Assembly: GCA_963803805.1 (NCBI GenBank)
Contig: CAWDOD010000003.1
Span: 32,001 to 96,000 of the forward strand
Origin: an uncultured cyanobacterium
Lineage (GTDB): Bacteria > Cyanobacteriota > Cyanobacteriia > Cyanobacteriales > CAWCAG01
DNA length: 64,000 nucleotides
Reading direction: 5' to 3'
Below are positions 647 through 17,085 of the stretch, in pieces. Made by a program: the position numbers and the translations under genes. Numbering within the stretch: the first letter of the stretch is position 1; every line of letters starts with the position of its first letter. The notes under the pieces were generated by a model. It searched no databases and was not told the DNA's origin. It saw only the letters and a list, made by a program, of their open reading frames with translations.

Positions 647-677
647 TTCTCATAATAATTTATTGGTTATTAAAACA

Positions 678-753
678 GGCGCTAACAACGTGTAAATTTC
701 ATAGCTGTTTCGTACCTTACAGCAACGTAAATTTACACTAAACGTTGTGGCTA
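678..753 (+). repeat. attC-like cassette recombination site 1
   Basis: GGCGCTAAC(678-686)-AAC-GTGTAAATT...AATTTACAC-TAAAC-GTTGTGGCTA(744-753); imperfect hairpin. Confidence 0.8.
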
Positions 754-1350
754 ATACGAAACAAAATCATCGTATACCTTAAGTCCCTTTTGACTCAAAT
801 AATTTTTTAATAACTGATTAACAGTTTTACAATATTCTGTTTTATTGTACTGAGAGGTAGGCAACAATTGGAAATAGGATGAACGAATACTGCCGCTCAA
901 AAACATAAGATACATGAAGTCATCCTCAATAAGTGAATCAATTAAAAACCCTTCAGCATAAAGTTTTTTTAACAGTTTCAGCCAAATCTGCTTTCTCTCG
1001 TCTTGTGACATGACCATTTTTGAGTAAACCCTCGGAAAATTTCGTTTAATCTCGACAAAATCTACTGTAAAAAATAGGTACTTGAGGCTAATATCATAAC
1101 TCATTAGAGGTAATGTCAAAAAGTATGTTAGTAAATTTTCATAAGCTGCAGGCGACTGTAAATCGGTTAATTCAACATTCATTTCTTTATAGATTTCCAA
1201 CACTAAATCTTCCTTAGTAGGATAATGGTAGGTTAAATTACCATAGCTTCTTTTCAACTCCTTACCAACATCACGAAGGCTTACATTGGTGACTCCGCTT
1301 TGATTGAAAAGTATTCTACTTTTCTCTTTTATCATTTTTTTTGTACTCAT
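751..1350 (-). CDS. TetR/AcrR family transcriptional regulator
   Basis: N-terminal HTH LFNQSGVTNVSLRDVGKEL..SYGNLTYHYPTKEDL; divergent from the hydrolase gene. Confidence 0.9.
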   Translation of the reverse strand: MSTKKMIKEKSRILFNQSGVTNVSLRDVGKELKRSYGNLTYHYPTKEDLVLEIYKEMNVELTDLQSPAAYENLLTYFLTLPLMSYDISLKYLFFTVDFVEIKRNFPRVYSKMVMSQDERKQIWLKLLKKLYAEGFLIDSLIEDDFMYLMFLSGSIRSSYFQLLPTSQYNKTEYCKTVNQLLKNYLSQKGLKVYDDFVSY

Positions 1351-1386
1351 ATTGCAAATTTAGTCCAAATGACCTAAATTTGCAAT
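1351..1386. promoter_or_regulatory. Divergent promoter / probable TetR operator palindrome
   Basis: Perfect 13-bp inverted repeat ATTGCAAATTTAG-N10-CTAAATTTGCAAT; each arm contains TAAATTTG, matching the Bacteroidota sigmaA -7 box TAnnTTTG. Confidence 0.65.
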
Positions 1387-1405
1387 TAAATTATAATTCA
1401 ATTGA

Positions 1406-2269
1406 ATGAAAAGCATATATAAAACACCCAAGGATAAGGAAAGTGTACTTGCACTTTACGATCAAAAATTGAAAAGCCTTAATTTTCCTTTTATAGAAAA
1501 AGATGTTGAAACAGCTTTCGGTAGGACAAGAGTGCTAATCTCAGGTAATGAGAAGGGTAAAAAAATTGTACTTTTTCATGGAATACATGCTGGCTCGCCA
1601 CTTAGCCTTGAAAGCATCAAGAATCTGCAGAAATTCTATGAAATTTATGCGATAGATACGATTGGTCAGGCCACGAAAAGTGCAGAAACTACCATTAATA
1701 TAAAAGATAATTCTTTTGCGCTATGGGCAGATGAAGTTTTAATCAAGTTGTCGATTGCACAGGCAGATTTTATAGGTGTCTCTTATGGTTCTTATATCCT
1801 TCAAAAATTAATTACACATCGACCGCAAAAAGTTGGAAAATGCATTTTTATAGTTCCAAGTGGTTTAGCCAACGGGGAACTATGGACATCTTTTAAAAAC
1901 CTTTCATTACCATTAATAAGATTTCAAATCACTAAGAAGGATGAAGACTTGAGAAAATTTGTTCGTCACTTTATACCAAATGATGATGATTATATGTTCG
2001 CTTTTCAACGAGCCATTTTAACAGGGCTTCACATGGACTATAGAAGACCTCAAATTCTACAAAAAAAAGATGTTGAACATTTTACTAACCCTGTATATAT
2101 TATAGCTGCAGATGATGATATATTCTTCCCTGCAGACAAATCAATTGCAAGAGCTAAAAAAGTGTTTAATAATTTGAAAGAAGTACATCTTTTAAAAAAC
2201 TGTAAACATATGCCTGATAAATCTCATTTTATAGAAATTGAGGATAAATTAAAAAAATGGATAAATTAA
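1406..2269 (+). CDS. alpha/beta fold hydrolase
   Basis: VLFHG oxyanion loop, GVSYG nucleophile elbow, C-terminal Asp/His (ADDDIFF, CKHMP). Confidence 0.9.
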   Translation: MKSIYKTPKDKESVLALYDQKLKSLNFPFIEKDVETAFGRTRVLISGNEKGKKIVLFHGIHAGSPLSLESIKNLQKFYEIYAIDTIGQATKSAETTINIKDNSFALWADEVLIKLSIAQADFIGVSYGSYILQKLITHRPQKVGKCIFIVPSGLANGELWTSFKNLSLPLIRFQITKKDEDLRKFVRHFIPNDDDYMFAFQRAILTGLHMDYRRPQILQKKDVEHFTNPVYIIAADDDIFFPADKSIARAKKVFNNLKEVHLLKNCKHMPDKSHFIEIEDKLKKWIN

Positions 2270-2279
2270 GAAGTATAAA

Positions 2280-2798
2280 ATGATTCTAGAAACCAAACGC
2301 TTAAAAATTATTCAGTGTGATGTAGAGATTTTAGAAGAAGCTGTAAAAGGCAATTCCAATATTGCTACTAAATTGGATGTGAAAGTGCCAGTGAATTGGA
2401 CAGAATTTGGCAAAGAAGCCTTAGAATATGTGATTAATAAGTTGGATGAGGATCCCTCTGAAAGAGGATGGTGGACGTATTTACCAATACACAAATCTGA
2501 AAACAAATTAATAGGAAGTGGAGGATATAAAGGCAAGCCAACACAAGGAGATGAAATAGAAATTGGCTACGAAATTGCTCCAGAATATAGAAATCAAGGC
2601 TTTGCCACAGAATTCACTATAGCATTAATTGAAAATGCTTTTAAAGATAACTGCGTAAAGCTAATCTCTGCGCATACGCTAGGAGAATTTAATCCATCTA
2701 CAAAAGTGTTAATGAAATGTGGATTTGAAAAAGTTGCCGAACTAAATGATCCAGATGAAGGAACCATTTGGAAATGGGAGTTAAAAAAAATACATTAA
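2280..2798 (+). CDS. GNAT N-acetyltransferase (RimJ/RimL type)
   Basis: EIGYEIAPEYRNQGFATE acetyl-CoA motif; N..S..VL.KCGF. Confidence 0.9.
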   Translation: MILETKRLKIIQCDVEILEEAVKGNSNIATKLDVKVPVNWTEFGKEALEYVINKLDEDPSERGWWTYLPIHKSENKLIGSGGYKGKPTQGDEIEIGYEIAPEYRNQGFATEFTIALIENAFKDNCVKLISAHTLGEFNPSTKVLMKCGFEKVAELNDPDEGTIWKWELKKIH

Positions 2799-2801
2799 AT
2801 T

Positions 2802-2969
2802 ATGAACACTAAATCCAATTATTTTTTACTTGCAGGGCTTATATTAATTTTCTTTCTCGTAGTTCAATATACAGATATCTATGGGAATTCTACTTGGTTT
2901 AAAGCGTTTTTATTAATATTAGTTATCTCACTTATTGGAGGTGGGATATCACATAAGCCAAAAAGTTGA
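2802..2969 (+). CDS. Small 55-aa two-TM membrane protein (not in ORF track)
   Basis: ATG 2802 to TGA 2969: MNTKSNYFLLAGLILIFFLVVQYTDIYGNSTWFKAFLLILVISLIGGGISHKPKS; fills the gap between two GNAT genes. Confidence 0.55.
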   Translation: MNTKSNYFLLAGLILIFFLVVQYTDIYGNSTWFKAFLLILVISLIGGGISHKPKS

Positions 2970-2993
2970 AATGAATTCTAAAATGAAGAACTT

Positions 2994-3521
2994 GTGATAA
3001 AAACAAAAAGAACCTTAATAAGACCTATCAATCAAGAAGACGCAAACGCAGTTTTTAATTATAGATCTGATTCTAAAACAAACCAATTTCAGGGTTGGAT
3101 TCCAAAGACTTTAGAAGATGTAAACGAAATTATACTTAAAAACCCTGCTGAGTTTAATGTTCCTGAAACTTGGTTTCAACTTGTAATTATTGAAACTAAT
3201 TCTGATAAAATAATTGGAGATATTGGCATTCACTTTTCTGATGAAAGAAATTTACAATGTGAAATTGGATGTACTTTGAATAAAGCGTATCAAAAAAAGG
3301 GATTTGCGTCAGAAACACTTCAAGCTGTGATAGATCATTTGTTCACAAAATTAGAGAAGCATAGGATTTTCGCTTCATTAGATCCTAAAAATGAAAATTC
3401 TGTTAACCTATTAGAAAGGCTTGGATTTAGAAAGGAAGCACACTTCAAACAAAGTTTGTGGTTTAGAGGAAAATGGGTTGATGATATGGTATTTGCCATA
3501 TTAAAAATCGAATGGAAATAA
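2994..3521 (+). CDS. GNAT N-acetyltransferase (RimJ/RimL type)
   Basis: EIGCTLNKAYQKKGFASE; NENSVNLLERLGFRKEAHF...WVDD. Confidence 0.9.
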   Translation: MIKTKRTLIRPINQEDANAVFNYRSDSKTNQFQGWIPKTLEDVNEIILKNPAEFNVPETWFQLVIIETNSDKIIGDIGIHFSDERNLQCEIGCTLNKAYQKKGFASETLQAVIDHLFTKLEKHRIFASLDPKNENSVNLLERLGFRKEAHFKQSLWFRGKWVDDMVFAILKIEWK

Positions 3522-3528
3522 AAAGTAC

Positions 3529-3664
3529 TAGCCACAACATTGGCTAAGAAAACATAGGGCAGTAATTACTTTCAGAAAGGTTAGTTCATTTAGCAAGCTT
3601 TAGTTTCGGTGGATAAATAATCACTCCGAAAGCCCAACGTTTCTTAGCCTAAAGGTTGGCAATA
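3529..3664 (+). repeat. attC-like site 2
   Basis: TAGCCACAAC(3529-3538)..GGCTAAGAAA...TTTCTTAGCC-TAAAG-GTTGGCAATA(3655-3664); near-paralog of site 5. Confidence 0.85.
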
Positions 3665-3667
3665 ATT

Positions 3668-4924
3668 ATGAAGAAAATGACGAATAAAGTATTCTACCTT
3701 ACAATTTTCATATTGAGTTTTCTTTCTTGCAAAACAGAAATGAAACCTAAAACTGAGATTCTTGAAAGCGAAAAAGCTGAAAAAATTGATATTCTCGCAA
3801 ACCGCTATCTTGATTTAGGTCGTTTCAGTGGAGTTGTTTTGGTAACCAAAGGCGATACAATTCTTTACGAAAATAGTTTTGGTTTAGCGGATTATGAAAA
3901 CAATAGATCCTTTTCTAATAAAACCACTTTTAAAATTGGGGAAATTTCCGAAATAGTTACTGCGAATATTGTTAAAGAAATGGCTAAAAAGGAGAAATTC
4001 AAATTAACAGACAAAATTTCGAATTACATTCCAGAATTCAAATCAGACTTCACAATTAATGATTTGCTAAATCATAAAACTAATTTACCAAGCTTGCAAA
4101 CTATTCAAGAACAAAATCCAGAGCTGGAATATTCAACTATCGATTATGCGAACTTAGCACTTCAATCATCTGAAAAAACTAAACGAAGTGATTTAAACTA
4201 TAATATTTTGGGATTGCTGATAGAAAAAATAAGCGGTAAAACCTTTCAAGAAAATATAGAAAATTATAGCAAGGAATTGAGTTTAGAAAACACATATTTT
4301 CAAAAAACTGATTCATCCTTGGCAGTTGGCTATCTATATCATAACCATCAAGGCAATGGACTTGAATTACAAAAAGCACCTGTTTCTAATGATGATATTA
4401 CATTTAGTAGCAAAGGAATAAAATCAACAGCAAATGATTTGGCAAAAATCATAAGTTCAAATTTCTCGGATAAATTAGAAATTGATGGCTATTATGACGG
4501 TTTTAGTTATTCGGTAGTTAATAATTCACAGACCCAAATTGCAATTGTTGTTCTATCAAATCGCAGACATCCAGTTGCAAAGGAAATTTCAAATAGTATT
4601 GAATCGATACTTGAAAATAAAGAATACTCACTTCCTTTGGCAAGAGAACAAATTGGCATTGACAAAAATTTGTTAAAGGATTATTCGGGATTCTATTCTC
4701 TAAACGAAAATATGAATTTAGAAGTCATCAATGAAAATGATAGTCTATTTGTAATGATGGGGCCAAATAAAATACATTTATTGCCTCAATCGGAAAACCA
4801 ATTTTATATGAAACAAACAGATGGGGCTATGCGGTTTTTGAGAGATACAGATAATAAGGTAAAGGAAGTTGAATTATTAGATGGATTTTTAGAAGGCAAT
4901 AAAATTAAACGCGTGGAAAAATAA
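3668..4924 (+). CDS. Serine hydrolase/beta-lactamase-fold lipoprotein with C-terminal DUF3471-like domain, SxxK motif degenerate
   Basis: Lipobox FLSC; FSGVVLV, FKIGEISE (canonical F.I.SxxK), LLNHKTNL, SDLNYNILGLLIEKISG; ATG at 3668 preferred over TTG 3656, which lies inside the site. Confidence 0.8.
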   Translation: MKKMTNKVFYLTIFILSFLSCKTEMKPKTEILESEKAEKIDILANRYLDLGRFSGVVLVTKGDTILYENSFGLADYENNRSFSNKTTFKIGEISEIVTANIVKEMAKKEKFKLTDKISNYIPEFKSDFTINDLLNHKTNLPSLQTIQEQNPELEYSTIDYANLALQSSEKTKRSDLNYNILGLLIEKISGKTFQENIENYSKELSLENTYFQKTDSSLAVGYLYHNHQGNGLELQKAPVSNDDITFSSKGIKSTANDLAKIISSNFSDKLEIDGYYDGFSYSVVNNSQTQIAIVVLSNRRHPVAKEISNSIESILENKEYSLPLAREQIGIDKNLLKDYSGFYSLNENMNLEVINENDSLFVMMGPNKIHLLPQSENQFYMKQTDGAMRFLRDTDNKVKEVELLDGFLEGNKIKRVEK

Positions 4925-4925
4925 C

Positions 4926-5061
4926 TATTGCCAACAACGGCTATAAGCAATTGGGGTTTAGGTGCTTAACCTAAAATTAAAATATAAAACAAAGGTCTGT
5001 GCTAAACTGAAAAGTAAGAGCAAAAAATCCCCAACTGCTCATAGCCACGACCGTTAGCGGT
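4926..5061 (+). repeat. attC-like site 3
   Basis: TATTGCCAAC(4926-4935)-AAC-GGCTATAAGCAATTGGGG...CCCCAACTGCTCATAGCC-ACGACC-GTTAGCGGT(5053-5061). Confidence 0.85.
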
Positions 5062-5086
5062 CAGCTAAAAAACATTACGGTAAACA

Positions 5087-6077
5087 ATGAAAGTAGAAGA
5101 CATAAAATCATTTGACGGACAACATTGCGAGACAACAGCGACAGGAACATTGTTGCGACAACTCGACATTGAACTTTCCGAACCAATGCTTTTTGGTTTA
5201 GGTGAAGGACTTGGGTTCATCTTTTGGAATATGAAGACAATGGACTTTCCATTTATTGGTGGACGAGTAAAAACCGACCTTGTAACACAAAATATCGCAA
5301 GAAATCTGAACCTTGAATTGACCGTTAAGGAAACTTCATCAGTAAAAAAGGCTTGGGACAGCGTAAAAAAACTAATTAACAATGGAAAAGTAGTCGGTTT
5401 AAAATTGGACTGTTACCATTTGCAATATTTTTCTCGACCATTTCATTTTGCAGGACATTATGTTGCAATTTACAACTATGACAACGAAAATGCTTTTTTG
5501 GTGGACACCAAACAGCAAGGCGGACAAGTAAAAACAAGTTTGAAAAGTTTGGAGTTGGCAAGAGCAGAAAAAGGACCAATGTCCTCTAAAAATTTGTTTT
5601 ACACAATTAACAAGACTGACAAAGACTTTGCCCTGAAAGAAGCGATTATTACAGCAATAAGAAATAACGCAACTGATTATTTAAATCCACCAATTACAAA
5701 TATTGGTTATAAAGGGATTTTAAAAACAAGCAAAGAAATAATCAAGTGGTTTAATACCAGTAAAGACATTGAAAACGAATTTAGCGCTTCTGCAATGATT
5801 ATGGAAAAAGCAGGAACAGGCGGAGCGCTATAGAAACTTGTACAGAGACTTTTTAAAAGAAAGTTGCGACTTGCTTAAACTTGACGAACTAAAATCAGGA
5901 CACAAAGCATTTATTGAAATTGCTACACTTTGGACTACAGTTGCAGAACTCTTTGAGAAGGTGAGTAAAACGAATGACTTTAAGTATGTTCAACAAGCAG
6001 CAGACATTTTAAAAACAATATCTGACAAAGAAAAAAAGGCAATGGAAATGTTGAGTAAAATAAAGCCGAACCGCTAA
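5087..6077 (+). pseudogene. BtrH N-terminal / DUF4872 family protein, frameshifted near 5831
   Basis: GQHCETTA..MLFGLGEGLGF..HFAGHY; reading GGAL-[F]-RNLYRDFL continues in the next ORF (5838-6077) if 2 nt are restored; stop codon overlaps site 4. Confidence 0.75.
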
Positions 6078-6204
6078 CAATGTGTATAAAAATAGGCGAA
6101 ACAGTAATAAATTCAAGGCTTATGGCTCGTATCAAAGTTTGTGCTTCACCGAAAGTTTAGTGCTTCAAAATCGCCTACTTTTCATATATTAAACGTTGTG
6201 GCTA
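6070..6204 (+). repeat. attC-like site 4
   Basis: ACCGCTAAC(6070-6078)-AAT-GTGTATAAAAATAGGCGA...TCGCCTACTTTTCATATAT-TAAAC-GTTGTGGCTA(6195-6204); near-paralog of site 9. Confidence 0.85.
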
Positions 6205-6240
6205 ATACAAAACAGACATTCAACTAAAGAGACAGACTTT

Positions 6241-6786
6241 ATGAAAAAGATAATTTATTATGTAGCGAGTTCATTAGATGGATATATCGCAGGAGAAAAT
6301 GACGATATAAGCAAGTTTATTTTGCAGGGCAAAGGAGTTGAAAAATATCAATCCGATCTTGCAAACTTCGGAACAGTTATTATGGGGCGAAAAACTTATG
6401 AATTTGGTTTTCAATATGGACTTGAACCAGGACAACCTGCCTACCCGAATATGGAACATCACATTTTTTCCAATTCACTAAAAATCGATAACCTATCTGA
6501 ATCTGTGAAAATTGAAAAACTTAGCATTGAAAAAGTGAATAATATCCGACAAAATGCTAAGACAGACATTTATTTATGTGGTGGCGGCCAGTTAGCAGGT
6601 TGGCTATTAGAGAACGGACTGATTGACCAATTAAAACTTAAATTAAACCCAATAGTACTCGGAAAAGGAACGAAATTATTTGGTTTTTCAACTGCAAATG
6701 AAAATTGGGAACTAACTGAGACAGAATCCTTTTCAGATGGACTTCTAATATTGACTTACGACAAGAAAAAAATAAATAGTTACTAG
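6241..6786 (+). CDS. Dihydrofolate reductase-like / RibD C-terminal family protein
   Basis: YYVASSLDGYIA, VIMGRKTYE, IYLCGGGQLA, NPIVLGKGTKLF; ATG 6241; TAG stop lies within site 5. Confidence 0.9.
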   Translation: MKKIIYYVASSLDGYIAGENDDISKFILQGKGVEKYQSDLANFGTVIMGRKTYEFGFQYGLEPGQPAYPNMEHHIFSNSLKIDNLSESVKIEKLSIEKVNNIRQNAKTDIYLCGGGQLAGWLLENGLIDQLKLKLNPIVLGKGTKLFGFSTANENWELTETESFSDGLLILTYDKKKINSY

Positions 6787-6918
6787 CCACAACAATGGCT
6801 AAGAAAACATAGGGCAGATAAGGCTTTCAGAAAGGTTCGTGCACTTAACAAACTTCAGTTTCGGTGGACAGTAAAATCGCTTCGAAAGCCCTACGTTCCT
6901 TAGCCAAGCGTTAGCGGC
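6784..6918 (+). repeat. attC-like site 5
   Basis: TAGCCACAAC(6784-6793)-AAT-GGCTAAGAAAACATAGGGC...GCCCTACGTTCCTTAGCC-AAGC-GTTAGCGGC(6910-6918). Confidence 0.85.
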
Positions 6919-6930
6919 AATGATATTACC

Positions 6931-8021
6931 ATGAATAAAGCCAATTTTCTACTACTAATAATTGCAATTCTTTTTGGCCATACGTCAAAAGCACAGGAGA
7001 GATATTTAAAATTGGATTCCCTTCTAACCACTCGATATCAAAATCAAGAATTTTCAGGTGTTGTGATTGTTGCTGAAGGAGATGAAATTACCTATGCAAA
7101 TGCACTTGGATATGCAGATTATGAACAAAGAATTCCATTGAACCTTTCTACCCAGTTTGATCTATCATCCGGATCAAAACTTTTCACAGCCGTTGCAATA
7201 GCTCAACTGGTCGAACAAAATAAATTATCTTTTCATACAAAAGTCTCGGAATTTTTCCCGAACTATCTTTTGCTTCCAAGGTGGATGTACATCAGTTAAT
7301 GACCCATTCTTCTGGACTGGGAAACTTTCAAACGGTCAAAGGCTTCAGTTATCAAAATATTAATTCATGTATTGACGCCTTGCCATTTATAAAAGACGAA
7401 CTATTACTCTACGAACCAGGCGACAGTGCATATTATGCTACTTCCAACCTGCTGGTACTGGGGGCAATGGTTGAAAAAATCTCAGGACTTCCTTTTCCAG
7501 AATATGTCAAGAAAAACATCTCGGAAAAACTCGGTCTTGACAGAACAACCTTTGATACATACTTCTACATTCAGGATTATGCAGGACGCGATGGGCGATT
7601 TGCTAAGGGATATATTAAAAATGAAGAGGGGCAAATAGTCGAAAAGAACAGATACGAAAATGAAAGGACTCACTTAACTCTATCAGCCGGTGGAATGTGG
7701 GCGAGTGCCGCAGATTTGTTCAAATTTGACAGAGCTATCTTTTCAGGTAACTTATTTAATAAAGAACTCCTTAAACCGATGACTGCCCATCATGTTTTTA
7801 CCGGATGGGAAGGCACTTATTTCGGCTATGTTTTTAATATCATCAATGTGAAGACGCACAAGGAGGGTGTTGGTCATGCAGGAAATAGTTCGGGGCATCA
7901 CAGCTTTAACTTTCACTATGAAAACAAGGATACAACACTAATTATTTTGACCAACTATGGATTCATTGACATTTTTGAATTAGCACATAGCCAAATTGAA
8001 CCCATACTATTTGACGAATAA
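6931..8021 (+). pseudogene. Serine hydrolase (beta-lactamase class C-like), frameshifted near 7260
   Basis: Signal peptide, FDLSSGSK (SxxK), LMTHSSGL, YATSN, GHAGN; two ORFs join as FFP[E]LSFASKVDVHQL with one base restored. Confidence 0.8.
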
Positions 8022-8022
8022 A

Positions 8023-8143
8023 GCCGCTAACAAACGATATAGCATATGCCTCTATGAAGTTACTTGAAACTGTTCTGCAAAACCGCTAGATTGTAGATGT
8101 TAAAATAGTTCAGAGGCACATACCATATCTGGTCATTAGAGCC
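8023..8143 (+). repeat. attC-like site 6 (right core ATT instead of GTT)
   Basis: GCCGCTAAC(8023-8031)..GATATAGCATATGCCTCT...AGAGGCACATACCATATC-TGGTC-ATTAGAGCC(8135-8143). Confidence 0.8.
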
Positions 8144-8149
8144 AATACC

Positions 8150-8719
8150 ATGATTCGATATTTTCTACTAATTATCATAATGTCTGCATGCTCTCCTACT
8201 AACGAGGATTGTTTAGAAAAACTGAACAGCGAGCTTGGCTCTAAGTATTCTGAGCCTCTTGACGAGTTGACCCATGAATTCGAACGTATTGTGATGAAAT
8301 CAGACGGTTCAAGTTTCCCAGATAAATGTAGGAATTTCCTAAAACCTCTTGCATCTGGGAAGGATCAAGAATTCTTCTCAAAAATTGTCAAGAGAGAAGA
8401 GCTTGTGAACGCTGTTAGTGGATTGGACACTATGATTTTCAAGTATGAATACTATAAAACGGATAGCCTCTCAACTAAGAAATATATTTCGAACAAATGG
8501 AACGGTAACTTTATCAAAGCGCTATCAACCTTAACGGAATGTGACGAATTGATTTCCGGATATGTAGAAACTATAGTGGAAACTGGGGGAATAGGACCTG
8601 TTCTAGTGGCGAATGGAGCAATTGTTAATTACAGTGATGAAGAATTCAACAACCCAATTGTCAAGCGAATACTGGCAGTGGAAGTTCTTCTACCTTACTT
8701 GACATATTCTCCTGACTAA
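8150..8719 (+). CDS. Hypothetical lipoprotein
   Basis: Hydrophobic N-terminus ending MSAC (lipobox); single-gene cassette. Confidence 0.7.
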   Translation: MIRYFLLIIIMSACSPTNEDCLEKLNSELGSKYSEPLDELTHEFERIVMKSDGSSFPDKCRNFLKPLASGKDQEFFSKIVKREELVNAVSGLDTMIFKYEYYKTDSLSTKKYISNKWNGNFIKALSTLTECDELISGYVETIVETGGIGPVLVANGAIVNYSDEEFNNPIVKRILAVEVLLPYLTYSPD

Positions 8720-8723
8720 AAAA

Positions 8724-9012: not shown

Positions 9013-10008
9013 ATGAAACGATTTATTAGCTCAAAACCAATAATTAGCTATCTACTAATCGCATATTTAATCACATTCTCATTCTGGTTTGCACCAAATA
9101 TATTTGAAGTAACTACAGACATTAGATTTGGACTTTTTACTATTGGAGGATGTGGACCTTTAATTGCAGCATATCTGGTTATGCTCATTCAATCTGAAAG
9201 GAAAATTGAAATACCATCTTTGAAAATCTTCTTTCTCTTCTTCTTTCTCTCATTATTTTCTATCACTGCCCTAATGTACTCTATAGATTTAGGAAATATA
9301 AATGAAGAAGGCTTCACACCAAGATTACAGAATGTTAGTATCCTAGGTTGGCTACTAGTATTATTGTTTTGTTTTATTACCGGACTTAACGCTAGTAATG
9401 CAGCAAACACAAAATTAAAAGAGAATTATCTGAAAACATTCTTGTTTGAAAATCAAAAATTAAAATGGTACGCTATTGCCCTTTTAATATTCCCTACACT
9501 TTCAATGCTTGGGTATTTTCTCGGGGATTTTCTTGGATTCAAGTTGACTGATTTTTTTATAAAATATGAACCTTTTTGGCTGTTGACATTTCTGGGTACT
9601 TTCCTATACTTTGGCGGAAACGAGGAATTTGGATGGAGAGGATTTATGCAAAAGGAACTACAAAAGAAATACAGTCCATTAATTAGTGCTTTACTTATAA
9701 GTGTAGCTTGGAACTTTTGGCATCTACCAATGCATTATAATGGAATTTATTCAACAGGCGGGATTGCAGACCTTCTTCCAAGATTTTTATTGATAGTACC
9801 TCATACTATAATGCTAACTTGGTTATTCAATAAGTCAAAATATTCATTACTTGCCGTAGTTCTTTTACATACAATGCATAATAGTTTCACCAGTATATTT
9901 GGTGGAGCAAGAGAAAGTCTATTCATTCTTCAAATGCTATTTTGTGTCATTGTAATAATAAAAGAAAAAATGTGGAAAAAAATAGACTACAGTAAGGTAA
10001 TTGATTAA
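9013..10008 (+). CDS. CPBP (CAAX/Abi) family intramembrane metalloprotease
   Basis: EEFGWRG, WNFWHLP, HTMHN motifs; multi-TM. Confidence 0.9.
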   Translation: MKRFISSKPIISYLLIAYLITFSFWFAPNIFEVTTDIRFGLFTIGGCGPLIAAYLVMLIQSERKIEIPSLKIFFLFFFLSLFSITALMYSIDLGNINEEGFTPRLQNVSILGWLLVLLFCFITGLNASNAANTKLKENYLKTFLFENQKLKWYAIALLIFPTLSMLGYFLGDFLGFKLTDFFIKYEPFWLLTFLGTFLYFGGNEEFGWRGFMQKELQKKYSPLISALLISVAWNFWHLPMHYNGIYSTGGIADLLPRFLLIVPHTIMLTWLFNKSKYSLLAVVLLHTMHNSFTSIFGGARESLFILQMLFCVIVIIKEKMWKKIDYSKVID

Positions 10009-10016
10009 TAAAAAAC

Positions 10017-10154
10017 GTGCTACAACAATGTATAACCGCAATTACGGCGGATTCGACTGCGTCCGAATCCACTCGGAATTGCTAAGCCAGTGTTCAACCG
10101 AAAAAACAGTAACTTTAAACCCGTAACTGACGGTTATACCAACCGTTGGGCACA
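10017..10154 (+). repeat. attC-like site 8
   Basis: GTGCTACAAC(10017-10026)-AAT-GTATAACCGCAATTACGG...CCGTAACTGACGGTTATAC-CAACC-GTTGGGCACA(10145-10154). Confidence 0.85.
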
Positions 10155-10229
10155 ATTAAAACCGACTTCCGATTAAACCTTTTCAATTTTTGTGCATCTA
10201 ATTCTATATTGAACTTATAAACAGAAAAA

Positions 10230-12215
10230 ATGAAAAAAGTGTACCTCACAATTATAACCACTTTCTTAACGCTTGGAATTACTGCTCAAACTATTCAACA
10301 ACTCATAGATTCGGCAGCAACCTTTCCGCCTATGCCAAGGGGCACAGCAGATATGATTCCATTTGTTCAGGGCTTTCCAACTTTCGCTTCAGGAGCACCT
10401 TTCAACGATTTGGATTTTACACTTCTTGACACAGACTATATGGATGGCGAGAATAGTGGTGGAGATGTTTTTATGCCTGTTGACCCTTCAGACCAATTCC
10501 CAGGAGCCGATAAAGTAAAATATATCCGTTGCATTTTAAACACGGATTTAAATCAAGCCTATGGTAGTGCAGATATTGATAGAGTAATTCTTGGAACTCA
10601 CGAAATTAGCGTACCCTTTTTTTTACGTGGCGCTGACGGCATCGACAACGATTATGCTGTTATTCAGCACCTCGATTTTGAAGCGGGATATATTCAGCTT
10701 AAAGGTTCTGCCAATGACTACGATTTGGTATATTGTACTTTAGCTGATGGCTGCCAAACAGAAGGGTGGTATTTATTTTATACTGCCAATAACAGTATAG
10801 ACCTTATTGCATTCATCTATCCTTGCTGGGATATTGAACCTTCTGTAAGTGGTAATCCACCAAATAATCCCAACCCTATTTGTAACTCAGATAGTACCTT
10901 GAGCTTAACTAATCCTACTCATTTCAAATACGCCCAGCCCATTAACACGAATATCACTTTGACAAATGGGATTGCTCAATTTGGAAGCAATGGAAAAGAA
11001 GTCATTGGTGGAATGACAGTCGATAGCCAGGGCAATACATATTTATTTGGACTTACAGACGGCAACTTAGATGGGAATACTGATGCTGACAATGAAATCT
11101 TTGTCATCAAACTTGACATTAACGGAAACCGACAATGGGTGACAGAACTTCCAATGGCAGAAGGAACAATTTTGAAAGACGGAATTACAGACAATCAATT
11201 TTTGTATGTCTGTGGACGGACTTTGGGAAATTTGCCAGGCTTTACGAATGCAGGAAGATGGGACGGCATTATTTTAAAACTTGACCTCTCAAACGGACAA
11301 ATTATAGCGTCAGACCAATGGGGAAATGCAGGAATTGACGGTTATGGAAACATAGAACAAGACGATAACGGAAATATTTTTGTTTCAGCGCAAGGCTCGC
11401 CCGTTGGACAAGGCGGAACAGATGATGTGTATTTGGTTGCCAAACACAGCAAATCTGACCTATCCAACATTTGGCGTGAATTGAATGCACCGAACGCCAC
11501 AGGTTTTATTGCCTCTGCCGAAGCGTGGGGCGGTCTTACTTATGTTCCAAACCAAACCCCAGGTGATGGTAGGCTCATTGCTGGTGGTTGGTATTTTTCG
11601 AATTTAGGAGCTAATGCATTCGTTTCCGTATATGAAAATCTTAACTCTGCCAATCCTACTCGACCACATTCCGAAATAATCAATACACAAGGAATAAGAG
11701 CCGATTGGGTATTAGATAATGCGGTAGACAGTCAAGGAAATATATATGTAGCAGGTTTTACTACAGGCAATTTAGGTTCAACACCACTTGGCGAAGGAGA
11801 TGCCTATATTATCAAGTATTCCCCTCAACTGACAAATCCTGTTTATCTGCAATTTGGAACCAACAAATCAGACCTAATTAGGAAGTTGATTATTCAAAAT
11901 GACACACTCTACACTGTCGGCTACACTTATGGAAACTATATTGGGAATAATGCCGACCCAAATCTACTTTCAGGAGATGTATTTATTCAAAAGTTAGATG
12001 CTAACTTGAACCTTTTAAACGGAATTCAATTCGGAACACCACACGAAGACCGTGGCTTTGGTTATTTAAGAGATACGAATCTATGGATTGGCGGAATGAC
12101 CGAAGGCTATATGTCAGGAAACAATCTTGGTTCTTTTGACGGGTTTCTTGCTGCGGTAAATACGACAGACCTTTCATTGAATAACCGATTGAATAAGAAA
12201 ATTATAAAAGAATAA
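10230..12215 (+). CDS. Secreted SBBP-repeat (beta-propeller) protein
   Basis: Signal peptide; repeats VDSQGNTYLFGLTDG and AVDSQGNIYVAGFTTG, DAYIIKY, DVFIQK; ends in KKIIKE. Confidence 0.75.
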   Translation: MKKVYLTIITTFLTLGITAQTIQQLIDSAATFPPMPRGTADMIPFVQGFPTFASGAPFNDLDFTLLDTDYMDGENSGGDVFMPVDPSDQFPGADKVKYIRCILNTDLNQAYGSADIDRVILGTHEISVPFFLRGADGIDNDYAVIQHLDFEAGYIQLKGSANDYDLVYCTLADGCQTEGWYLFYTANNSIDLIAFIYPCWDIEPSVSGNPPNNPNPICNSDSTLSLTNPTHFKYAQPINTNITLTNGIAQFGSNGKEVIGGMTVDSQGNTYLFGLTDGNLDGNTDADNEIFVIKLDINGNRQWVTELPMAEGTILKDGITDNQFLYVCGRTLGNLPGFTNAGRWDGIILKLDLSNGQIIASDQWGNAGIDGYGNIEQDDNGNIFVSAQGSPVGQGGTDDVYLVAKHSKSDLSNIWRELNAPNATGFIASAEAWGGLTYVPNQTPGDGRLIAGGWYFSNLGANAFVSVYENLNSANPTRPHSEIINTQGIRADWVLDNAVDSQGNIYVAGFTTGNLGSTPLGEGDAYIIKYSPQLTNPVYLQFGTNKSDLIRKLIIQNDTLYTVGYTYGNYIGNNADPNLLSGDVFIQKLDANLNLLNGIQFGTPHEDRGFGYLRDTNLWIGGMTEGYMSGNNLGSFDGFLAAVNTTDLSLNNRLNKKIIKE

Positions 12216-12223
12216 CTGTGCCC

Positions 12224-12302
12224 AACAACTAAGCATTCGTGTGGTCGGTACGACCCAACATAGCCTGTCCCGCAATTCGGGAAATGCAGTGTTGAGCGAA
12301 TC
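12224..12302 (-). repeat. Hairpin att/ori site of the recombinase-transposase module (inverted attC-like site)
   Basis: Minus strand: GATTCGCTCAAC-ACT-GCATT...GGTCG/CGACC stem...AATGC-TTAGTT-GTT; same 3-nt/5-6-nt spacer asymmetry as array sites but on the opposite strand; contains a TCCCG-N5-CGGGA palindrome at 12268-12282. Confidence 0.65.
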
Positions 12303-12927
12303 AGTAGCTTGCTAGAAGTGCTGCACCCTTATGGGTAAACCGAAATGATTGAGTTTAATGTCAGGGCTTAAAAGTGTTTACTTTTAAGCTGGAAGGAGTA
12401 GTCAAATCAAGTATTTTAAGGCTTTATCATATGACTTTTAATATTTTCATTGATTGAGGAGCTATTTTTTCCTCATTTTAGCACATTTTGAGCGTAGTTT
12501 TTCCATTACGCCCATTGCCGTTTCATTTTTTAGTGTCCTTTTAGTTTATTGAGCCAATGAAGAGGTGGTCCCCTTTGATCAAAGACTGCCACGGTTTGAA
12601 GTTTTCCTTTTTTGCAGGTTGGGCAGATGCCCAAGCAGGTAGCGATTGATTCAGCAATAATAATTTCAAGCTTACCTATTTGGCTCTCTATTATCGCCTT
12701 ACATGCTTTTTTACGGCTGCCCGATAAAATACCAAAATGCCTGATTCGAGTAACACCTTTTGGCAGGATATGCATGGCAAACCTTCTGATAAATTCCTTT
12801 GTCTTTAAAGTCACCACATGCTTTTTGCCACCTCTCCTGTACTCTTTGGCAGAGAAGCTGACCCCGTCCTTGTCCACATCGATCAGCCGGTGGTTGCTGA
12901 TGGCCACTTTATGGGTATACCTGCCTA

Positions 12928-12947
12928 GCCCCGATAGCTATCGGGGC
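12928..12947. repeat. Perfect 20-bp palindrome GCCCCGATAGCTATCGGGGC in the transposase
   Basis: Read directly; frameshifts the gene at the inferred YxxRY motif. Confidence 0.85.
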
Positions 12948-13443
12948 CACTACTTGAGTAGGTCCATAAAATTGTTGCTTGCAATAGATCACCCAGTTCT
13001 TTTTAAACAACAGTTGGCCCTCCTGCTTGGTCAGCAGTTCTTCTTTTCTTAATGCGGCCACCATCTTTGCTCTAAATACTTTGCTCATGGCCTTTACAGG
13101 GAAAAGATATTTGCCCTTTCCCTTACCCTCTTTCCATTTTCCCGATCGGGTCAATCCCCCTGAAGGAATGATACAGTGAAGATGTGGGTGCAGGCTCAGG
13201 TTCTGCCCCCATGTATGGAGCACGGCAATCATGCCGTTGTGGGCGCCCATCAACTTGGGGTTAGCCGCAAAATCCTTTACCACTTGCCAAGCTGTTTTGA
13301 ACAATAGCGCATATAGCAATCCAGGCTGTTCCAAGGCCAAACCATTGAGGGTATCGGGCAGGGAAAACACCGTATGAAAATAGGAGGTGTTGAGTAAATC
13401 CTTTTCCCTTTCCTGCACCCACTTTTGCTGTAGGTGCCCTTGA

Positions 13444-13461
13444 TCCCGATAGCTATCGGGA
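13444..13461. repeat. Perfect 18-bp palindrome TCCCGATAGCTATCGGGA in the transposase
   Basis: Read directly; frameshifts the gene at the inferred HCPxC zinc-binding motif. Confidence 0.85.
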
Positions 13462-13665
13462 GGCAGTGCCTGTTGCGGCAGCTATTGTAGCTGAGGTGCA
13501 ATTTATTGCATTTAGGATTATCACAGCGATCAAGGTGACCTCCCATGGCAGACGTCCTGCATTTTGCCAATGCATACAGCGTCCTGCGCTTCCAGCTATT
13601 GCCGATAAGACTTGGCAGTTCATGTAGCTGTTGTTGCAGGATTTGCTGTACTTCAAAAGTGGGCT

Positions 13666-14526
13666 TCATGACCGGTAGAGTTTCTCTAAAGGAGAAAAAG
13701 GCAGTTGCCTGCCCACCCTTGCCACATGCAGGTAGCCCAAGGTGGTCTGGATGTCACCATGCCCGAGCAGATCTTTGAGGGTGATGATATCGGTGCCCAT
13801 TTCCAGCAGATGGGTGGCGTAGCTGTGACGAAGGGTATGGGCTGTGATTTGCTTCTTGATACCTGAGCGTTGCCTGGCTTCACGCATCACCCATTGCACT
13901 CCTCTGGTGGAAAGCCCGGTATATCCTCCTTCTTCATCGGATTGCCCGTTGAAAAGAAATTCAACAGGTTTTTCCGCTTCAAGATAGGTTTCAACGCCAC
14001 GGATCAGTAAGTCACAAAGCGGAACATAGCGGTCTTTCTTTCCTTTTCCCTCCCTCACATGGAGCTGTTTCCTGATTAAATCAAGATCAACAATTTTAAG
14101 CTTGCACAACTCGAAGTTCCTCAGCCCACAGCCATAGAGCAACGCCATCATTAATCGGTGCTTCAGTAGTTTTGGAGTCTTTAAAAGTAAGCGTACTTCT
14201 TGCTGACTTAATACAACGGGTAGTGCCTTCTGCCTTCCAATGGAGGGTAATATCACCCTGCTTTCTGTGCGGTCAAATATCCTGTAGAGGTAGCGAAGTC
14301 CGTAAACGGTGTGCTTGAAGAAGCTATCAGAAGGCGTCTTCCTTTTGGACTTTAACATGTGCAGATAATCCAGGATTTGCTCGTCATCCAGTTCCAGCAA
14401 ATCACATTGCAAGTGCAGACCCATATGTGCCAAACACCTCCCATAATTAGTGAGTGTGCTCTGGCTTTTGCCGGCAATATCAATACTTCTTCTTAGCCTT
14501 TTGTACTGTAGGCCGAAGCCTGGCAC
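13666..14526 (-). CDS. Tyrosine recombinase/integrase (IS91-associated type, not canonical IntI)
   Basis: Catalytic set GLR, REGKGKKDR, HTLRHSYATHLLE, LLGH, TTLGY; N-terminal SAM-like domain; an upstream ATG (14567-14569) is out of frame by one base in an A8 run. Confidence 0.92.
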   Translation of the reverse strand: MPGFGLQYKRLRRSIDIAGKSQSTLTNYGRCLAHMGLHLQCDLLELDDEQILDYLHMLKSKRKTPSDSFFKHTVYGLRYLYRIFDRTESRVILPSIGRQKALPVVLSQQEVRLLLKTPKLLKHRLMMALLYGCGLRNFELCKLKIVDLDLIRKQLHVREGKGKKDRYVPLCDLLIRGVETYLEAEKPVEFLFNGQSDEEGGYTGLSTRGVQWVMREARQRSGIKKQITAHTLRHSYATHLLEMGTDIITLKDLLGHGDIQTTLGYLHVARVGRQLPFSPLEKLYRS

Positions 14527-14659
14527 AGCTTGACAGGCTTTTTCAATTAGGGTATTACTTTTTTTTCATAACTTATAATTTAATGAATGAATACTCAACC
14601 TAAGTTACGGAAGTCTGAACAAATTGTCAGGCTTCCGCCCTTAGGCGGATTCGTTCAAC

Positions 14660-14784
14660 AATGTATATAAAAAATAGGCGATTTAGTAATAAATTCAAGG
14701 TTTTTGCTCATATCAAACTTTGTGTTTAACCGAGAGTTCAGTGATTCGATATCGCCTACTTTTCATATACTAAACGTTAGCGGT
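14660..14784 (+). repeat. attC-like site 9, right part (left core TGTGCCCAAC at 12217-12226)
   Basis: AAT-GTATATAAAAAATAGGCGAT...ATCGCCTACTTTTCATATAC-TAAAC-GTTAGCGGT(14776-14784); near-paralog of site 4. Confidence 0.85.
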
Positions 14785-14833
14785 AATGCAAAAAACACTC
14801 TACAAGAAAACAAAAATTCTAAAATAGAAAGAA

Positions 14834-15322
14834 ATGACAGAGTTAGAAGACAAATTTGAAATTTACGAATTGGCGTATAAGTTTGCTGATGCGGCCAATC
14901 GAAAAGACGGAAAAATGTTTCAATCCCTTTGGGCAGACGAAGGTGCTGAATGGATTATTGGAAAACCCATAAATAAAGAATTTAAAGGAAAAGAAAATAT
15001 GGGTGGGTATGTAACGCAAATGCTCGGGCTTTGGGAATTTTTTGTGCAGATGGTTACTGGCGGAGTTGTAATACTAAAAGGAAATGAGGCATATGCACGT
15101 TTTTATGTTCAAGAAATTGCAAATGGAAAGAATGAAACAGGGAACCATAACCTGAGTATGTACGAGGACGAATTGATAAAAAATGATGGTCTTTGGTACT
15201 TTAAAAAAAGAACATATCATACCATATTTCAATCAACGGAAAGACAAAAGGGAGAAGTTATACAAGTTCCAGATTTACCAGAATGGAGTAAAGAAAAATC
15301 GTTGAACACTAGAGCACAATAG
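14834..15322 (+). CDS. NTF2/SnoaL-like protein
   Basis: IYELAYKFADAANRKD..F.SLW; YEDEL...DGLWYFKKR. Confidence 0.8.
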   Translation: MTELEDKFEIYELAYKFADAANRKDGKMFQSLWADEGAEWIIGKPINKEFKGKENMGGYVTQMLGLWEFFVQMVTGGVVILKGNEAYARFYVQEIANGKNETGNHNLSMYEDELIKNDGLWYFKKRTYHTIFQSTERQKGEVIQVPDLPEWSKEKSLNTRAQ

Positions 15323-15348
15323 TCAATATAAACAAAAATTCTAAAAAT

Positions 15349-16068
15349 ATGAAAAAAGTTATTCATAAAGCAGAAACGAGAGGACACGCAAATCACGGCT
15401 GGTTAGACAGTTATCACACTTTTAGTTTTGCAAATTATCACAATCTTGAGCGAATGAATTTTGGTGTTTTAAGAGTTTTAAATGACGACACCGTATCTGG
15501 AGGAATGGGATTTGGGAAACATCCACATAGAGATATGGAAATAATAAGCATACCGCTTGAAGGAACTCTAAAACACGAAGATAGTATGGGTACGAAAAGT
15601 ATCATTGAAAGCGGTGATGTTCAAGTAATGAGTGCTGGTACAGGAGTAACACACAGCGAAAAAAATGCAAGTCAAACTGAAACCGTAAAATTTCTACAAA
15701 TATGGATTATTCCGAAAAAGTTGGGATTGGAACCACGCTATGGTGAAATCAACTTATCTGATGGTGCAAAACCCAACGATTTTCAACAGATAGTTTCACC
15801 CAATAAAGACGATGCCGGAACTTGGATTAATCAAGATGCTTGGCTCAACCTTGCTAATTTCGACAAAGGAACCACCAAAGAGTATTGTATTCAAAAGAAC
15901 ACAAATGGCATCTATGTTTTCATAATTGAGGGTAAGGCAAAAATAAATAATCAATTATTGGAAAAGCGTGACGGTTTAGGCATTTCAGAAACACAATCTT
16001 TCAAAGTTGAGGCGATAGAAAATTCACAGATACTTTTAATTGAAGTACCTATGGAATTGCCCGAATAA
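15349..16068 (+). CDS. Pirin family protein
   Basis: RGHANHGWLDSYHTFSF, GFGKHPHRDMEIIS, MSAGTGVTHSE, FLQIWI. Confidence 0.95.
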   Translation: MKKVIHKAETRGHANHGWLDSYHTFSFANYHNLERMNFGVLRVLNDDTVSGGMGFGKHPHRDMEIISIPLEGTLKHEDSMGTKSIIESGDVQVMSAGTGVTHSEKNASQTETVKFLQIWIIPKKLGLEPRYGEINLSDGAKPNDFQQIVSPNKDDAGTWINQDAWLNLANFDKGTTKEYCIQKNTNGIYVFIIEGKAKINNQLLEKRDGLGISETQSFKVEAIENSQILLIEVPMELPE

Positions 16069-16077
16069 ATTAAAATT

Positions 16078-17006
16078 ATGAAAAACTCAAGTAAACTAAA
16101 AACACTCCTCTACAAAGGAAACGAAAAAAGCAAATTGACCTTGCATCTGTTTTTGCAGATTATCGGCAAGATACGAATGAATAAAACCGAACGTAAAAAC
16201 CATTGGTGGTATATCACAGAATATATCGATACTAAAGGGATTTCATCGGGTGCTATTCCATACGATAACGGAAATAATACCTTCAAAATTACCATTAACG
16301 TTTTACAACACCTTTAGAAGTCGAAAACTCAAAAGGCGGTTTCAATTCTTTTGAATTATCATCAAGCTTGACCGTTGCAGAATTCTTCAAAAAAATATCC
16401 AATATTTTGAAAGAGCAAAACATCCCTTTTACAATTTTTGACAAACCGTTTGACTTAAGTATTGATAGCAAATTTGGACAGATTAATGATTTACATCATT
16501 ATGATAAAGACTATGTTTTTGAGCTTTGGAAAGCCTTGCTTTGGGTAGATACTGTATTTAAAGAATTTAGTGGCAGGTTTTACGGTAAAACCTGTCCAGT
16601 TCATTTATATTGGCACTCAATGGATTTAACGGTAACACGATTTTCTGGCAAAAAAGCACCACCAATGCCAAACGATGCAAGAATTTCCGATAAGGATGCC
16701 TATTCGCACGAGGTCATCAGTTTTGGTTTTTGGCCAGGCGATGAAAATGTACAGGAACCAGCCTTTTATTCTTACACATATCCTTCACCAAAAGGTATAG
16801 ACAAAGAGATTATTTTACCCCAACAAGCTAAGTGGGTCGAAGTCAACAACAGCCCGATGGCGATATTGAAATATAATGATTTAGTGAATGAAAAGAACCC
16901 ACGGAAATCATTGTTGGAATTTTTACAAACCACTTATCATGCAGGTGCTAAATTAGCAAAGTGGGATATAAAAGGTTTTGAAGTTCCAGACTTAAATAAA
17001 TTATAA
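16078..17006 (+). pseudogene. DUF5996-like protein, frameshifted near 16312
   Basis: TLHLFLQIIGKIR..NHWW; FYGKTCPVHLYWHSMDL, AYSHEVISFGFWPG, PAFYSYTYPSP; ORFs join with one base restored. Confidence 0.7.
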
Positions 17007-17018
17007 GAAGAAACAATT

Positions 17019-17085
17019 ATGGTTAAAATTGACATCGAAAATAACGGTAAGAAAGGTCGTTTTGCAATTTACGAAGATGATATAG
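17019..17085 (+). pseudogene. 5' fragment of a short GNAT (YjdJ-like) gene truncated at the junction
   Basis: MVKIDIENNGKKGRFAIYEDD resembles the N-terminus of this family; the expected AGEMTY continuation is absent. Confidence 0.55.

Follow-up and report, generated by a model that had tools for sequence, protein, structure and literature searches.

Integrons are defined by the extra domain of their integrase, IntI, which reads the extrahelical bases of folded attC sites. In sedentary chromosomal integrons, such as the Vibrio cholerae repeat (VCR) array, a tyrosine recombinase lies beside a docking site (attI), and a one-directional array of mostly promoter-less cassettes follows, in which each cassette ends in a hairpin (R''/L''...L'/R') with AAC/GTT cores, a G|TT boundary, and a large variable loop. 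Here, we describe a locus that shares this arrangement in a 64,000-nt stretch of DNA (the window), which corresponds to positions 32001 to 96000 of contig CAWDOD010000003.1 (C3) in an assembly assigned to an uncultured cyanobacterium. Positions 1 to 17082 of the window are very probably the distal 17 kb of a ~38-kb sedentary integron-like gene-capture array from a Flavobacteriales-type (Bacteroidota) bacterium. The analysis confirmed that this is a genuine array of exchangeable cassettes that obeys integron logic, headed by a recombinase without the hallmark domain of integrons. The locus appears integron-like in every feature that can be read from its sequence, apart from two that define integrons, the IntI insertion and the conserved extrahelical bases.

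Compared with chromosomal integrons, the recombinase here has no IntI-specific insertion and scores below the family cut-offs, while the sites have no conserved extrahelical G or T and a spacer of 5/3 nt instead of 5/5. In addition, the recombinase gene points into the array and is followed by the docking site; beside it, a zinc-ribbon gene in divergent orientation has been conserved, and long forms of the recombinase carry an extra N-terminal domain. In the "inverted integrase" integrons of the Treponema denticola type, the integrase is likewise transcribed in the cassette direction; in these elements, both the integrase, an IntI that includes the additional domain, and the attC sites are canonical. 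CALINs, an IntegronFinder category of attC clusters that lack an integron integrase, resemble the window taken alone, which is an attC-type cluster without IntI, but here a dedicated recombinase stands at the array head on the same contig. Archaeal XerA and bacterial XerC/D are, like the recombinase described here, simple enzymes without the IntI insertion; however, their dif/pdif sites are short (28 bp), double stranded, and not arranged in arrays with a closure rule, whereas the sites of this array are hairpins of 60 to 210 nt. Xer-dependent pdif modules are carried by Acinetobacter plasmids.

Integron surveys based on the extra-domain definition report almost none in Bacteroidetes: in the parts of PMC9024848 available to us, the phylum is credited with In0 elements alone, apart from a single complete integron in Salinibacter. 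We found no account of such Flavobacteriales arrays in the accessible full-text literature, including PMC9024848, PMC8618304, PMC8138268, PMC4889954, and PMC2727003; supplementary tables of the IntegronFinder papers may list Bacteroidetes elements.

A closure rule and a duplicated unit delimit the cassettes

The array spans C3:11165 to C3:49082 (window position 17082), and placing all sites along it located 27 closed cassettes at C3:11165-44226. The original prediction, made from the window alone, had started the array at position 678; the upstream part of C3 holds a further 21 kb of like sites, and the real start lies that far 5' of the window. The same prediction held that each complete unit begins with a 9- to 10-mer whose reverse complement closes the unit. 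This was borne out, as all 16 motifs of the eight pairs were found in place and seven pairs are perfect reverse complements over 9 to 10 nt; the eighth, ATTAGAGCC/GGCTCTAAC, differs in the first base only (ATT for GTT), the single terminal mismatch already noted. Across the whole array, the first and last ten bases of a cassette match at 10/10 positions in 15 of the 27 cassettes, at 9/10 in 10, and at 8/10 or fewer in 2; of the latter, one has a core with a 1-nt insertion and the other has ATT replacing GTT. The two outer ends of a single site, which had been said not to match, agree at a mean of 5.3/10 positions and reach at least 9/10 in only 1 of 26 same-site pairs. This whole-array comparison is the properly aligned control; for the 7 complete sites of the window, 1 to 6 of 10 outer-box positions agree in a fixed-offset count that is misaligned by one base for the 9-mer sites. 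Among non-adjacent core pairs, 19 of 676 match at 9/10 or better because core sequences are re-used. Stop codons had been described as overlapping or abutting the left core; overlapping cases exist, whereas others lie up to 8 nt 5' of the core.

The closure rule is symmetrical and would equally fit a crossover at the left core, but the array itself contains a duplicated cassette that decides the matter. C3:11854-13300 and C3:20118-21558 are 99.2% identical over 1,447 nt, with unlike neighbors on both sides. On the upstream side, identity sets in 1 nt before the G of GTT; on the downstream side, it extends through 4 nt of the core (GTTG). Because it stops at the GTT cores, the attC travels with the gene 5' of it, and the copied unit is TT-gene-hairpin-G, the classical cassette form. 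The cassette logic that had been proposed (a unit whose start and end are complementary, a G|TT crossover, and attC at the 3' end) thus holds, and the copy supplies a cassette bounded at GTT in another context, elsewhere in the same array. One of the two copies has since gained frame breaks. The near-identical duplicate, together with the intact catalytic set of the recombinase described below, suggests that the array is or recently was active. Elsewhere in the array, C3:17851-18358 and C3:18353-18858 are tandem units of ~500 nt without open reading frames (ORFs), 90.6% identical, each with a 204- to 205-nt site.

Sites that lie just 3' of stop codons, fold stably, and fall into classes that recur many times could also be immobile intergenic repeats, akin to repetitive extragenic palindromic elements or terminators, with the complementarity of unit start and end a by-product of repeat families. 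We consider this highly improbable, since the outer 6 to 7 bases pair across the gene and not inside the site, a whole unit has been duplicated with its limits at the cores, the same rule operates in 17 loci of other genomes when judged against direction controls, and no Rfam family matches. The Rfam search, in a database that itself has no attC family, returned 0 hits in window positions 1 to 17100 at gathering thresholds or E ≤ 1.

The hairpin sites resemble attC and depart from it

The sites consist of imperfect inverted repeats (R''-L''...L'-R') with AAC/GTT cores and an unpaired central spacer, as attC sites do, and cassette boundaries fall at G|TT both here and in other genomes. Sixteen sites of 117 to 132 nt were aligned as bottom strands under a hand-written structure comprising 3 bp of AAC/GTT, a spacer, and a 19-bp L stem; bottom strand and written structure were adopted after RNAalifold predicted zero pairs from a top-strand alignment. 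Pairing was found in 88.8% of cells, versus 71.7% in shuffles (0/500 as high) and 39 to 51% with partners slid, and 15 of the 22 pairs show compensatory changes on both sides; the hairpin structure therefore has covariation support. AAC/GTT is invariant in 15 of the 16 sites. When the eight window bottom strands were folded singly, five were more stable than all 200 shuffles (z from -3.3 to -4.8), one had a z of -2.2 (4/200 shuffles as stable), and two, class A or short, were indistinguishable from shuffles.

Two features distinguish the strands. In 12 of the 16 aligned sites, G.T pairs occupy two bottom-strand positions, whose top-strand counterparts are A.C mismatches. Folding with DNA parameters favors the bottom strand in 23 of 27 sites (mean difference, 1.7 kcal/mol), among sites that fall in related classes and are not independent.

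Extrahelical and spacer bases were counted in minimum-energy folds of 91 sites (27 from this array and 64 from other genomes), in the L stem over at most its first 20 bp. In 51 sites, the stem has no unmatched base; 23 have such bases on the R''-L'' (canonical) arm only, 12 on the opposite arm only, and 5 on both, and conserved extrahelical bases of the classical attC kind were not seen in these folds. In the sections of PMC2727003 accessible to us, the extrahelical G of L'' in attC is described as "absolutely conserved," and IntI is said to need extrahelical bases for strand choice. The unpaired spacer is asymmetric, most commonly 5 versus 3 nt (37 of 91 sites). On these two counts, the sites do diverge from the standard attC model, as had been suspected.

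Simpler detectors performed poorly. A gapless inverted-repeat search missed most sites, and an automatic detector that combined a hairpin with a closure of at least 8 nt returned 5 to 13 false "cassettes" per 52 kb of cyanobacterial DNA; it was replaced by a covariance model with 9- to 10-nt closure and direction controls. In one class of 194- to 195-nt sites (C3:13115-13297, 21374-21555, 25216-25398, and 25957-26138), the loop holds a nested perfect hairpin, CAATCCGCAGGATTG...CAATCCTGCGGATTG.

The platform at the array head

No ORF of the window encodes an integron integrase, as had been stated. A platform composed of a zinc-ribbon gene, a recombinase gene, and an attI-like site was found 5' of the window at C3:9501-11171. 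The recombinase gene (C3:9988-11121), 21 kb 5' of the window and on the strand of the cassettes, encodes a 377-amino-acid (aa) tyrosine recombinase. A search of the assembly with the integron-integrase profile TIGR02249 gave two sub-threshold matches, both on C3. The platform enzyme scored 196.1 bits (cut-off, 265) in two pieces, leaving profile positions 179 to 239 unmatched, and 122 bits against NF011946 (cut-off, 435). Its best NCBIfam match was recomb_XerA_Arch (NF040815; 212.9 bits; cut-off, 220), and it also scored below the XerC/XerD-type cut-offs (TIGR02225, 189.8 versus 329.6; TIGR02224, 176.9 versus 335), so that by curated cut-off it belongs to none of the XerA, XerC, and XerD equivalogs.

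Alignment to VchIntIA (2A3V) covers residues 114 to 279 and 303 to 371; between them, the 23 residues 280 to 302 stand opposite 66 residues of VchIntIA (179 to 244). This recombinase thus lacks the additional domain that is specific to IntI and located between catalytic patches II and III. In the portion of PMC8138268 available to us, the insertion is called "not fully conserved" in a subgroup of integron-like recombinases. The R-K-H-R-H-Y set (R236, K261, H325, R328, H351, and Y360) is intact and invariant in 17/17 homologues. An AlphaFold model built from a 17-sequence alignment (predicted local distance difference test [pLDDT], 84) has 2A3V as its best structural match (E = 1.2e-16), with XerA second. 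As judged from these comparisons, integron integrases and archaeal XerA are apparently its closest relatives.

Residues 1 to ~105 form an extra N-terminal alpha/beta domain. Pfam found nothing in the first 108 residues. Modeled alone (pLDDT, 86), the domain gave fold matches at Z scores of 5 to 6, weak against a caution level of 8, to the UvsW N-domain, the XPB damage-recognition domain, and a CASTOR ACT-like fold; these likenesses may offer a lead and are not a finding.

The first cassette opens 44 nt after the recombinase stop codon, directly 3' of an imperfect palindrome followed by TT|GTT, which we read as a putative attI-like site. It has the position expected of attI, in that it adjoins the integrase-like gene and the first cassette starts there; its location 3' of a co-oriented gene is unlike that in class 1 integrons. 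Divergent from the recombinase gene and 5' of it lies a gene for a 128-aa zinc-ribbon protein without a Pfam or NCBIfam match. A protein-atlas comparison returned only unnamed Bacteroidota clusters at 0.85, under the trusted level. The 100 nt between the two genes (C3:9887-9988; locus L007) contain a palindrome, GTAGATTTTGACGTTTA / TATACGTTTAAATCTAC, and a similar one occupies the same place in another locus, L009; an operator or promoter region is possible. Bacteroidota promoters differ from the sigma-70 consensus.

Recurrence in other Flavobacteriales genomes

Homologues of the recombinase with 51 to 53% identity over the full length occur among metagenome-assembled genomes (MAGs) from Crocinitomicaceae and other Bacteroidota, which agrees with the earlier description of the DNA as Bacteroidota type. 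Of 301 sampled Flavobacteriales genomes, 126 gave a recombinase match with E ≤ 1e-60, and many of these matches lie at contig ends. The original prediction had advised building a covariance model from its nine sites; one was built from the 16 aligned sites and searched against 40 sources. On the host assembly, all 19 hits fall inside the array, with 0 in the other 5.26 Mb (cyanobacterial). Sixteen loci of other genomes extend at least 3 kb 3' of a homologue; 14 of them gave one or more hits at E ≤ 0.01 (two or more in 13), and all hits at homologue loci are on the strand predicted from the direction of the recombinase.

The closure rule recurs as well: for 70 sites of other genomes, the R'' 9-mer has its partner upstream in 58 (wrong-direction control, 3), and 42 have an R' that closes downstream (control, 5). 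The first cassette could be located in 12 loci (this array and 11 others); there it opens 32 to 136 nt after the recombinase stop, always co-oriented, and in the closer homologues a palindrome precedes it. The zinc-ribbon gene adjoins the recombinase in 29 loci and was not found in a distant subfamily (36 to 41% identity). Shorter recombinases without the N-terminal domain head arrays likewise, on two short-form platforms (L060 and L061). At E ≤ 0.001, the covariance model has hits in 115 of 151 sampled Flavobacteriales genomes, often on many contigs.

An ordinary integron remnant, or CALIN, would be cassettes assembled by a canonical IntI that is elsewhere or lost, next to an unrelated Xer-type gene. 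The score of the platform recombinase under the integron-integrase cut-offs, the many genomes with sites in which no recombinase homologue was detected, and the absence from the assembly of the rest of this organism's genome are all compatible with such a remnant. It is nevertheless unlikely, given the first boundary 32 to 136 nt behind a co-oriented recombinase gene in 12 loci, the absence from most sites of the extrahelical bases that IntI is reported to need for strand choice (PMC2727003, as far as available), and the scarcity of integrons other than In0 in the Bacteroidetes as surveyed with IntegronFinder (PMC9024848, in the parts cited above).

We lean toward a separate integron-like lineage that is independent of extrahelical bases, is common in Flavobacteriales, and probably extends further into Bacteroidota. 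Its recombinase would be a sister of IntI without the insertion, with a conserved zinc-ribbon partner and, in the long forms, an N-terminal domain that possibly senses structure; the lineage would be either ancestral to classical integrons or a parallel invention, and would represent a large reservoir missed by integron finders. Several observations weigh against the reading given at the outset, a gene-capture array headed by this recombinase. Two of the 16 loci examined above, L043 and L057, lie beside a recombinase homologue and have no covariance-model hit at E ≤ 0.01. Taking the 151 genomes as a subset of the 301, sites were hit in 64 of the 74 genomes that have a recombinase match (E ≤ 1e-60) but also in 51 of the 77 that do not, so the genome-level link between recombinase and sites is modest and the sites are spread more widely than the recombinase as detected with this query. 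The rest of the Bacteroidota genome is outside the assembly, and a canonical IntI could be encoded there. Several cassette genes are broken, and much of the array may therefore be inert. Lastly, the public runs found are assembled contigs only, which are unable to reveal rare circles, and we infer excision from sequence. In one Flavobacteriales genome, G050, 22 strong site hits are scattered over many short contigs without any recombinase match at E ≤ 1e-60, which points either to fragmentation of its array during assembly or to use of a more distant recombinase.

A possible mechanism

Array anatomy, the closure rule, the core-bounded duplication of a cassette, and synteny conserved in other genomes are the observations from which a mechanism can be sketched; catalysis by the platform recombinase, single-stranded substrates, and current activity are what we infer from them. 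As with IntI, the recombinase would excise cassettes as circles by recombining folded hairpin sites at G|TT, and would re-insert the circles either into the attI-like site or into a further hairpin site. The choice of strand and orientation would probably depend on the asymmetric unpaired spacer (5 versus 3 nt) and on the G.T pairs that favor the bottom strand. Extrahelical bases probably have no role, which would be in keeping with a recombinase that lacks the insertion with which IntI reads them.

In this array, then, cassette logic runs without the extra domain of IntI and largely without extrahelical bases, beside one recombinase family present in many Flavobacteriales genomes. If the recombinase acts on these sites, the system is a natural test of strand and orientation choice in single-strand recombination. 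It would also bear on the transition from Xer to IntI (PMC4792948, seen in part) and would disclose a large, unsurveyed cassette pool, anti-phage genes included, that current integron finders would be missing.

The contig joins Bacteroidota and cyanobacterial DNA

The array ends abruptly at 17082|17083 (C3:49082|49083), which is a chimeric assembly join where 49 kb of Bacteroidota DNA is fused to a cyanobacterial contig; the end near 17085 in the original prediction is this breakpoint and not a biological end. The last 884 bp of another contig, C9, are identical to C3:49083-49966, with identity stopping exactly at 49083, and C9 continues as cyanobacterial DNA to the left. Because its end overlaps the cyanobacterial side by 884 bp, C9 gives the true left neighbor. 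A genome of the same genus keeps to the C9 path for 51 bp beyond the breakpoint, and in two sediment-metagenome runs (X1 and X2), contigs covering 17083 onward have C9-type sequence before this position. In a macroalgal-metagenome run (X9), an 858-nt contig matches 16547-17083 and then diverges.

Composition changes along the contig. The HIP1 octamer, GCGATCGC, marks cyanobacteria; counted in 2-kb bins, it occurs 0 times in the first 50 kb of C3, against 300 times in the whole 668-kb contig, and the G+C content of the first 50 kb is 0.32 to 0.38, against 0.40. If the cyanobacterium had really acquired the array horizontally, as an island of its chromosome, the contiguity of the array with cyanobacterial DNA in C3 would be accounted for. 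There is, however, very little chance of this: C3 begins in foreign DNA and has no HIP1 octamer in those 50 kb, and C9 offers an alternative cyanobacterial left neighbor that ends exactly at the breakpoint, in agreement with the related genome and the two sediment runs. The chimeric join thus assigns window positions 1 to 17082 to a Bacteroidota associate, with the last cassette merely cut off, and in practical terms it flags a chimeric contig in a cyanobacterial assembly.

An IS91-type element inserted in a hairpin-site core

A 2.4-kb insert on the minus strand at 12227-14659 lies between AA and C of the R'' core of an attC-like site, and its deletion restores a class-A site. It encodes a 286-aa IntI/Xer-like tyrosine recombinase (13666-14526; Pfam Phage_integrase), 36% identical to the platform recombinase, and a broken Y2 (HUH) transposase (12530-13669), with PF04986 and PF14319 spread over three broken frames. 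A Y2 HUH transposase with an N-terminal zinc-binding domain is characteristic of the IS91 family, and the arrangement of Zn_Tnp_IS91 and Y2_Tnp domains following a recombinase gene is shared with IS91-family members that have an upstream tyrosine recombinase. Distinctive here are the location at an attC-type core, AA|C, in two genomes and in one orientation, and an end that resembles a hairpin site with a closing core (11/12 by eye). The second genome is that of the L063 array, which carries the same module at the same target position in the same orientation. Because exact target and orientation recur, the insert, as far as its junction sequences tell, is best read as a probable site-specific insertion sequence; a reverse-oriented cassette, which its start and an internal core (11/12 by eye) had brought to mind, was rejected on the same grounds.

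An enzyme of the same broad family inside the array, on an element that targets hairpin sites, could in principle have moved the cassettes in place of the platform recombinase. This is very unlikely, since arrays with full closure exist in which no such element was seen (e.g., L009), the transposase of the element is broken here, and the attI-like site goes with the platform gene; the platform recombinase is the favored candidate.

Two copies of a 16-nt palindrome, CCCGATAGCTATCGGG, lie at 12925-12945 and 13440-13460, within the broken transposase frames. The abundant metagenome version of the element is without ~11 nt at 13444-13460, and at least the palindrome copy at 13440-13460 looks like an insertion. 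Contigs from hypersaline-lake metagenomes (X5 to X8) contain the IS91-type element and class-A sites at word depths of hundreds and 90 to 95% identity, which suggests a bloom-forming carrier in such lakes. "Joints" in X5 had been considered as signs of excision and were rejected, as their sides are merely 20 to 24 nt.

Cassettes and other features of the window

All cassettes and sites below are on the plus strand, and gene families are from Pfam. The window opens inside the last, permease-like ORF of cassette 19 (3' end at 1-686; in full C3:29494-32686, 3.2 kb), which encodes a TetR regulator and an ABC transporter, as read from its upstream ORFs, and closes at 9/10 (GTTAGCGCC / GGCGCTAAC). 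Site 0 (677-753) is short, with 71 nt from R'' to R', and scored 30.2 bits with the covariance model (bottom-strand fold z, -3.7). Cassette 20 (744-3538; closure, 10/10) carries a TetR gene on the minus strand, an alpha/beta hydrolase, two GNAT acetyltransferases, and a small membrane ORF, and is followed by site 1 (3529-3664; 99.8 bits), which is also identified by its fold. Cassette 21 (3655-4935; 10/10) encodes a serine hydrolase of the PF00144 "Beta-lactamase" fold with DUF3471. Its site 2 (4926-5062) scored 98 bits, and a contig of the macroalgal run (X9, record 24) contains 4932-5047 with flanks unlike on both sides.

In cassette 22 (5053-6078; 9/10), a BtrH_N/DUF4872 protein is interrupted by a stop (ORFs 5087-5833 and 5838-6077); site 3 (6069-6204; 126.4 bits) belongs to the commonest class. 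A RibD_C-domain reductase occupies cassette 23 (6195-6793; 10/10), which ends in site 4 (6784-6919; 98.2 bits), and cassette 24 (6910-8031; 9/10) holds a PF00144 serine hydrolase in two frames (6931-7299 and 7281-8021). Site 5 (8022-8144; 65.7 bits) has the R' core ATT in place of GTT, and the next cassette, 25 (8135-8732), which closes at 8/10, encodes a 189-aa protein without a family match in Pfam or PADLOC. The long site 6 (8723-8942; 214 nt) was placed by its core positions; its bottom strand is 3.1 kcal/mol more stable than the top, and it is absent among covariance-model hits at E ≤ 1.

Cassette 26 (8933-10026; 10/10) encodes an Rce1-like (CPBP) membrane protease and ends in site 7 (10017-10154; 78.3 bits; fold z, -3.9), and cassette 27 (10145-12226; 10/10) encodes a 661-aa secreted beta-propeller (SBBP repeat) protein. 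The IS91-type element has split site 8: its true R'' is at 12217-12226, and the remainder at 14650-14785 scored 131.4 bits and is a class-A site once 12227-14659 is removed. The last cassette (14776-17082) encodes a SnoaL-like protein, a pirin, a split DUF5996 protein, and the start of a small ORF; it has no closing core before 17082, where the breakpoint cuts it.

The cargo of the array as a whole includes GNAT acetyltransferases, PF00144 serine hydrolases, the RibD_C reductase, the CPBP protease, TetR-regulated units, an Imm33-like protein, and an Mrr-like nuclease. PADLOC identified two clear anti-phage candidates, PDC-S28 (1,097 bits) and RT_UG14 (657 bits), so that acetyltransferases, hydrolases, and anti-phage genes are all present, as in the cargo of chromosomal integrons. 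The remainder of the window (17083-64000) is cyanobacterial chromosome outside the element, with HIP1 octamers and a G+C content of 0.40; its first 884 bp (17083-17966) are the stretch shared with the end of C9. This part contains a tmRNA gene (24209-24606) and a c-di-AMP riboswitch (47102-47259), both hits at Rfam gathering thresholds.

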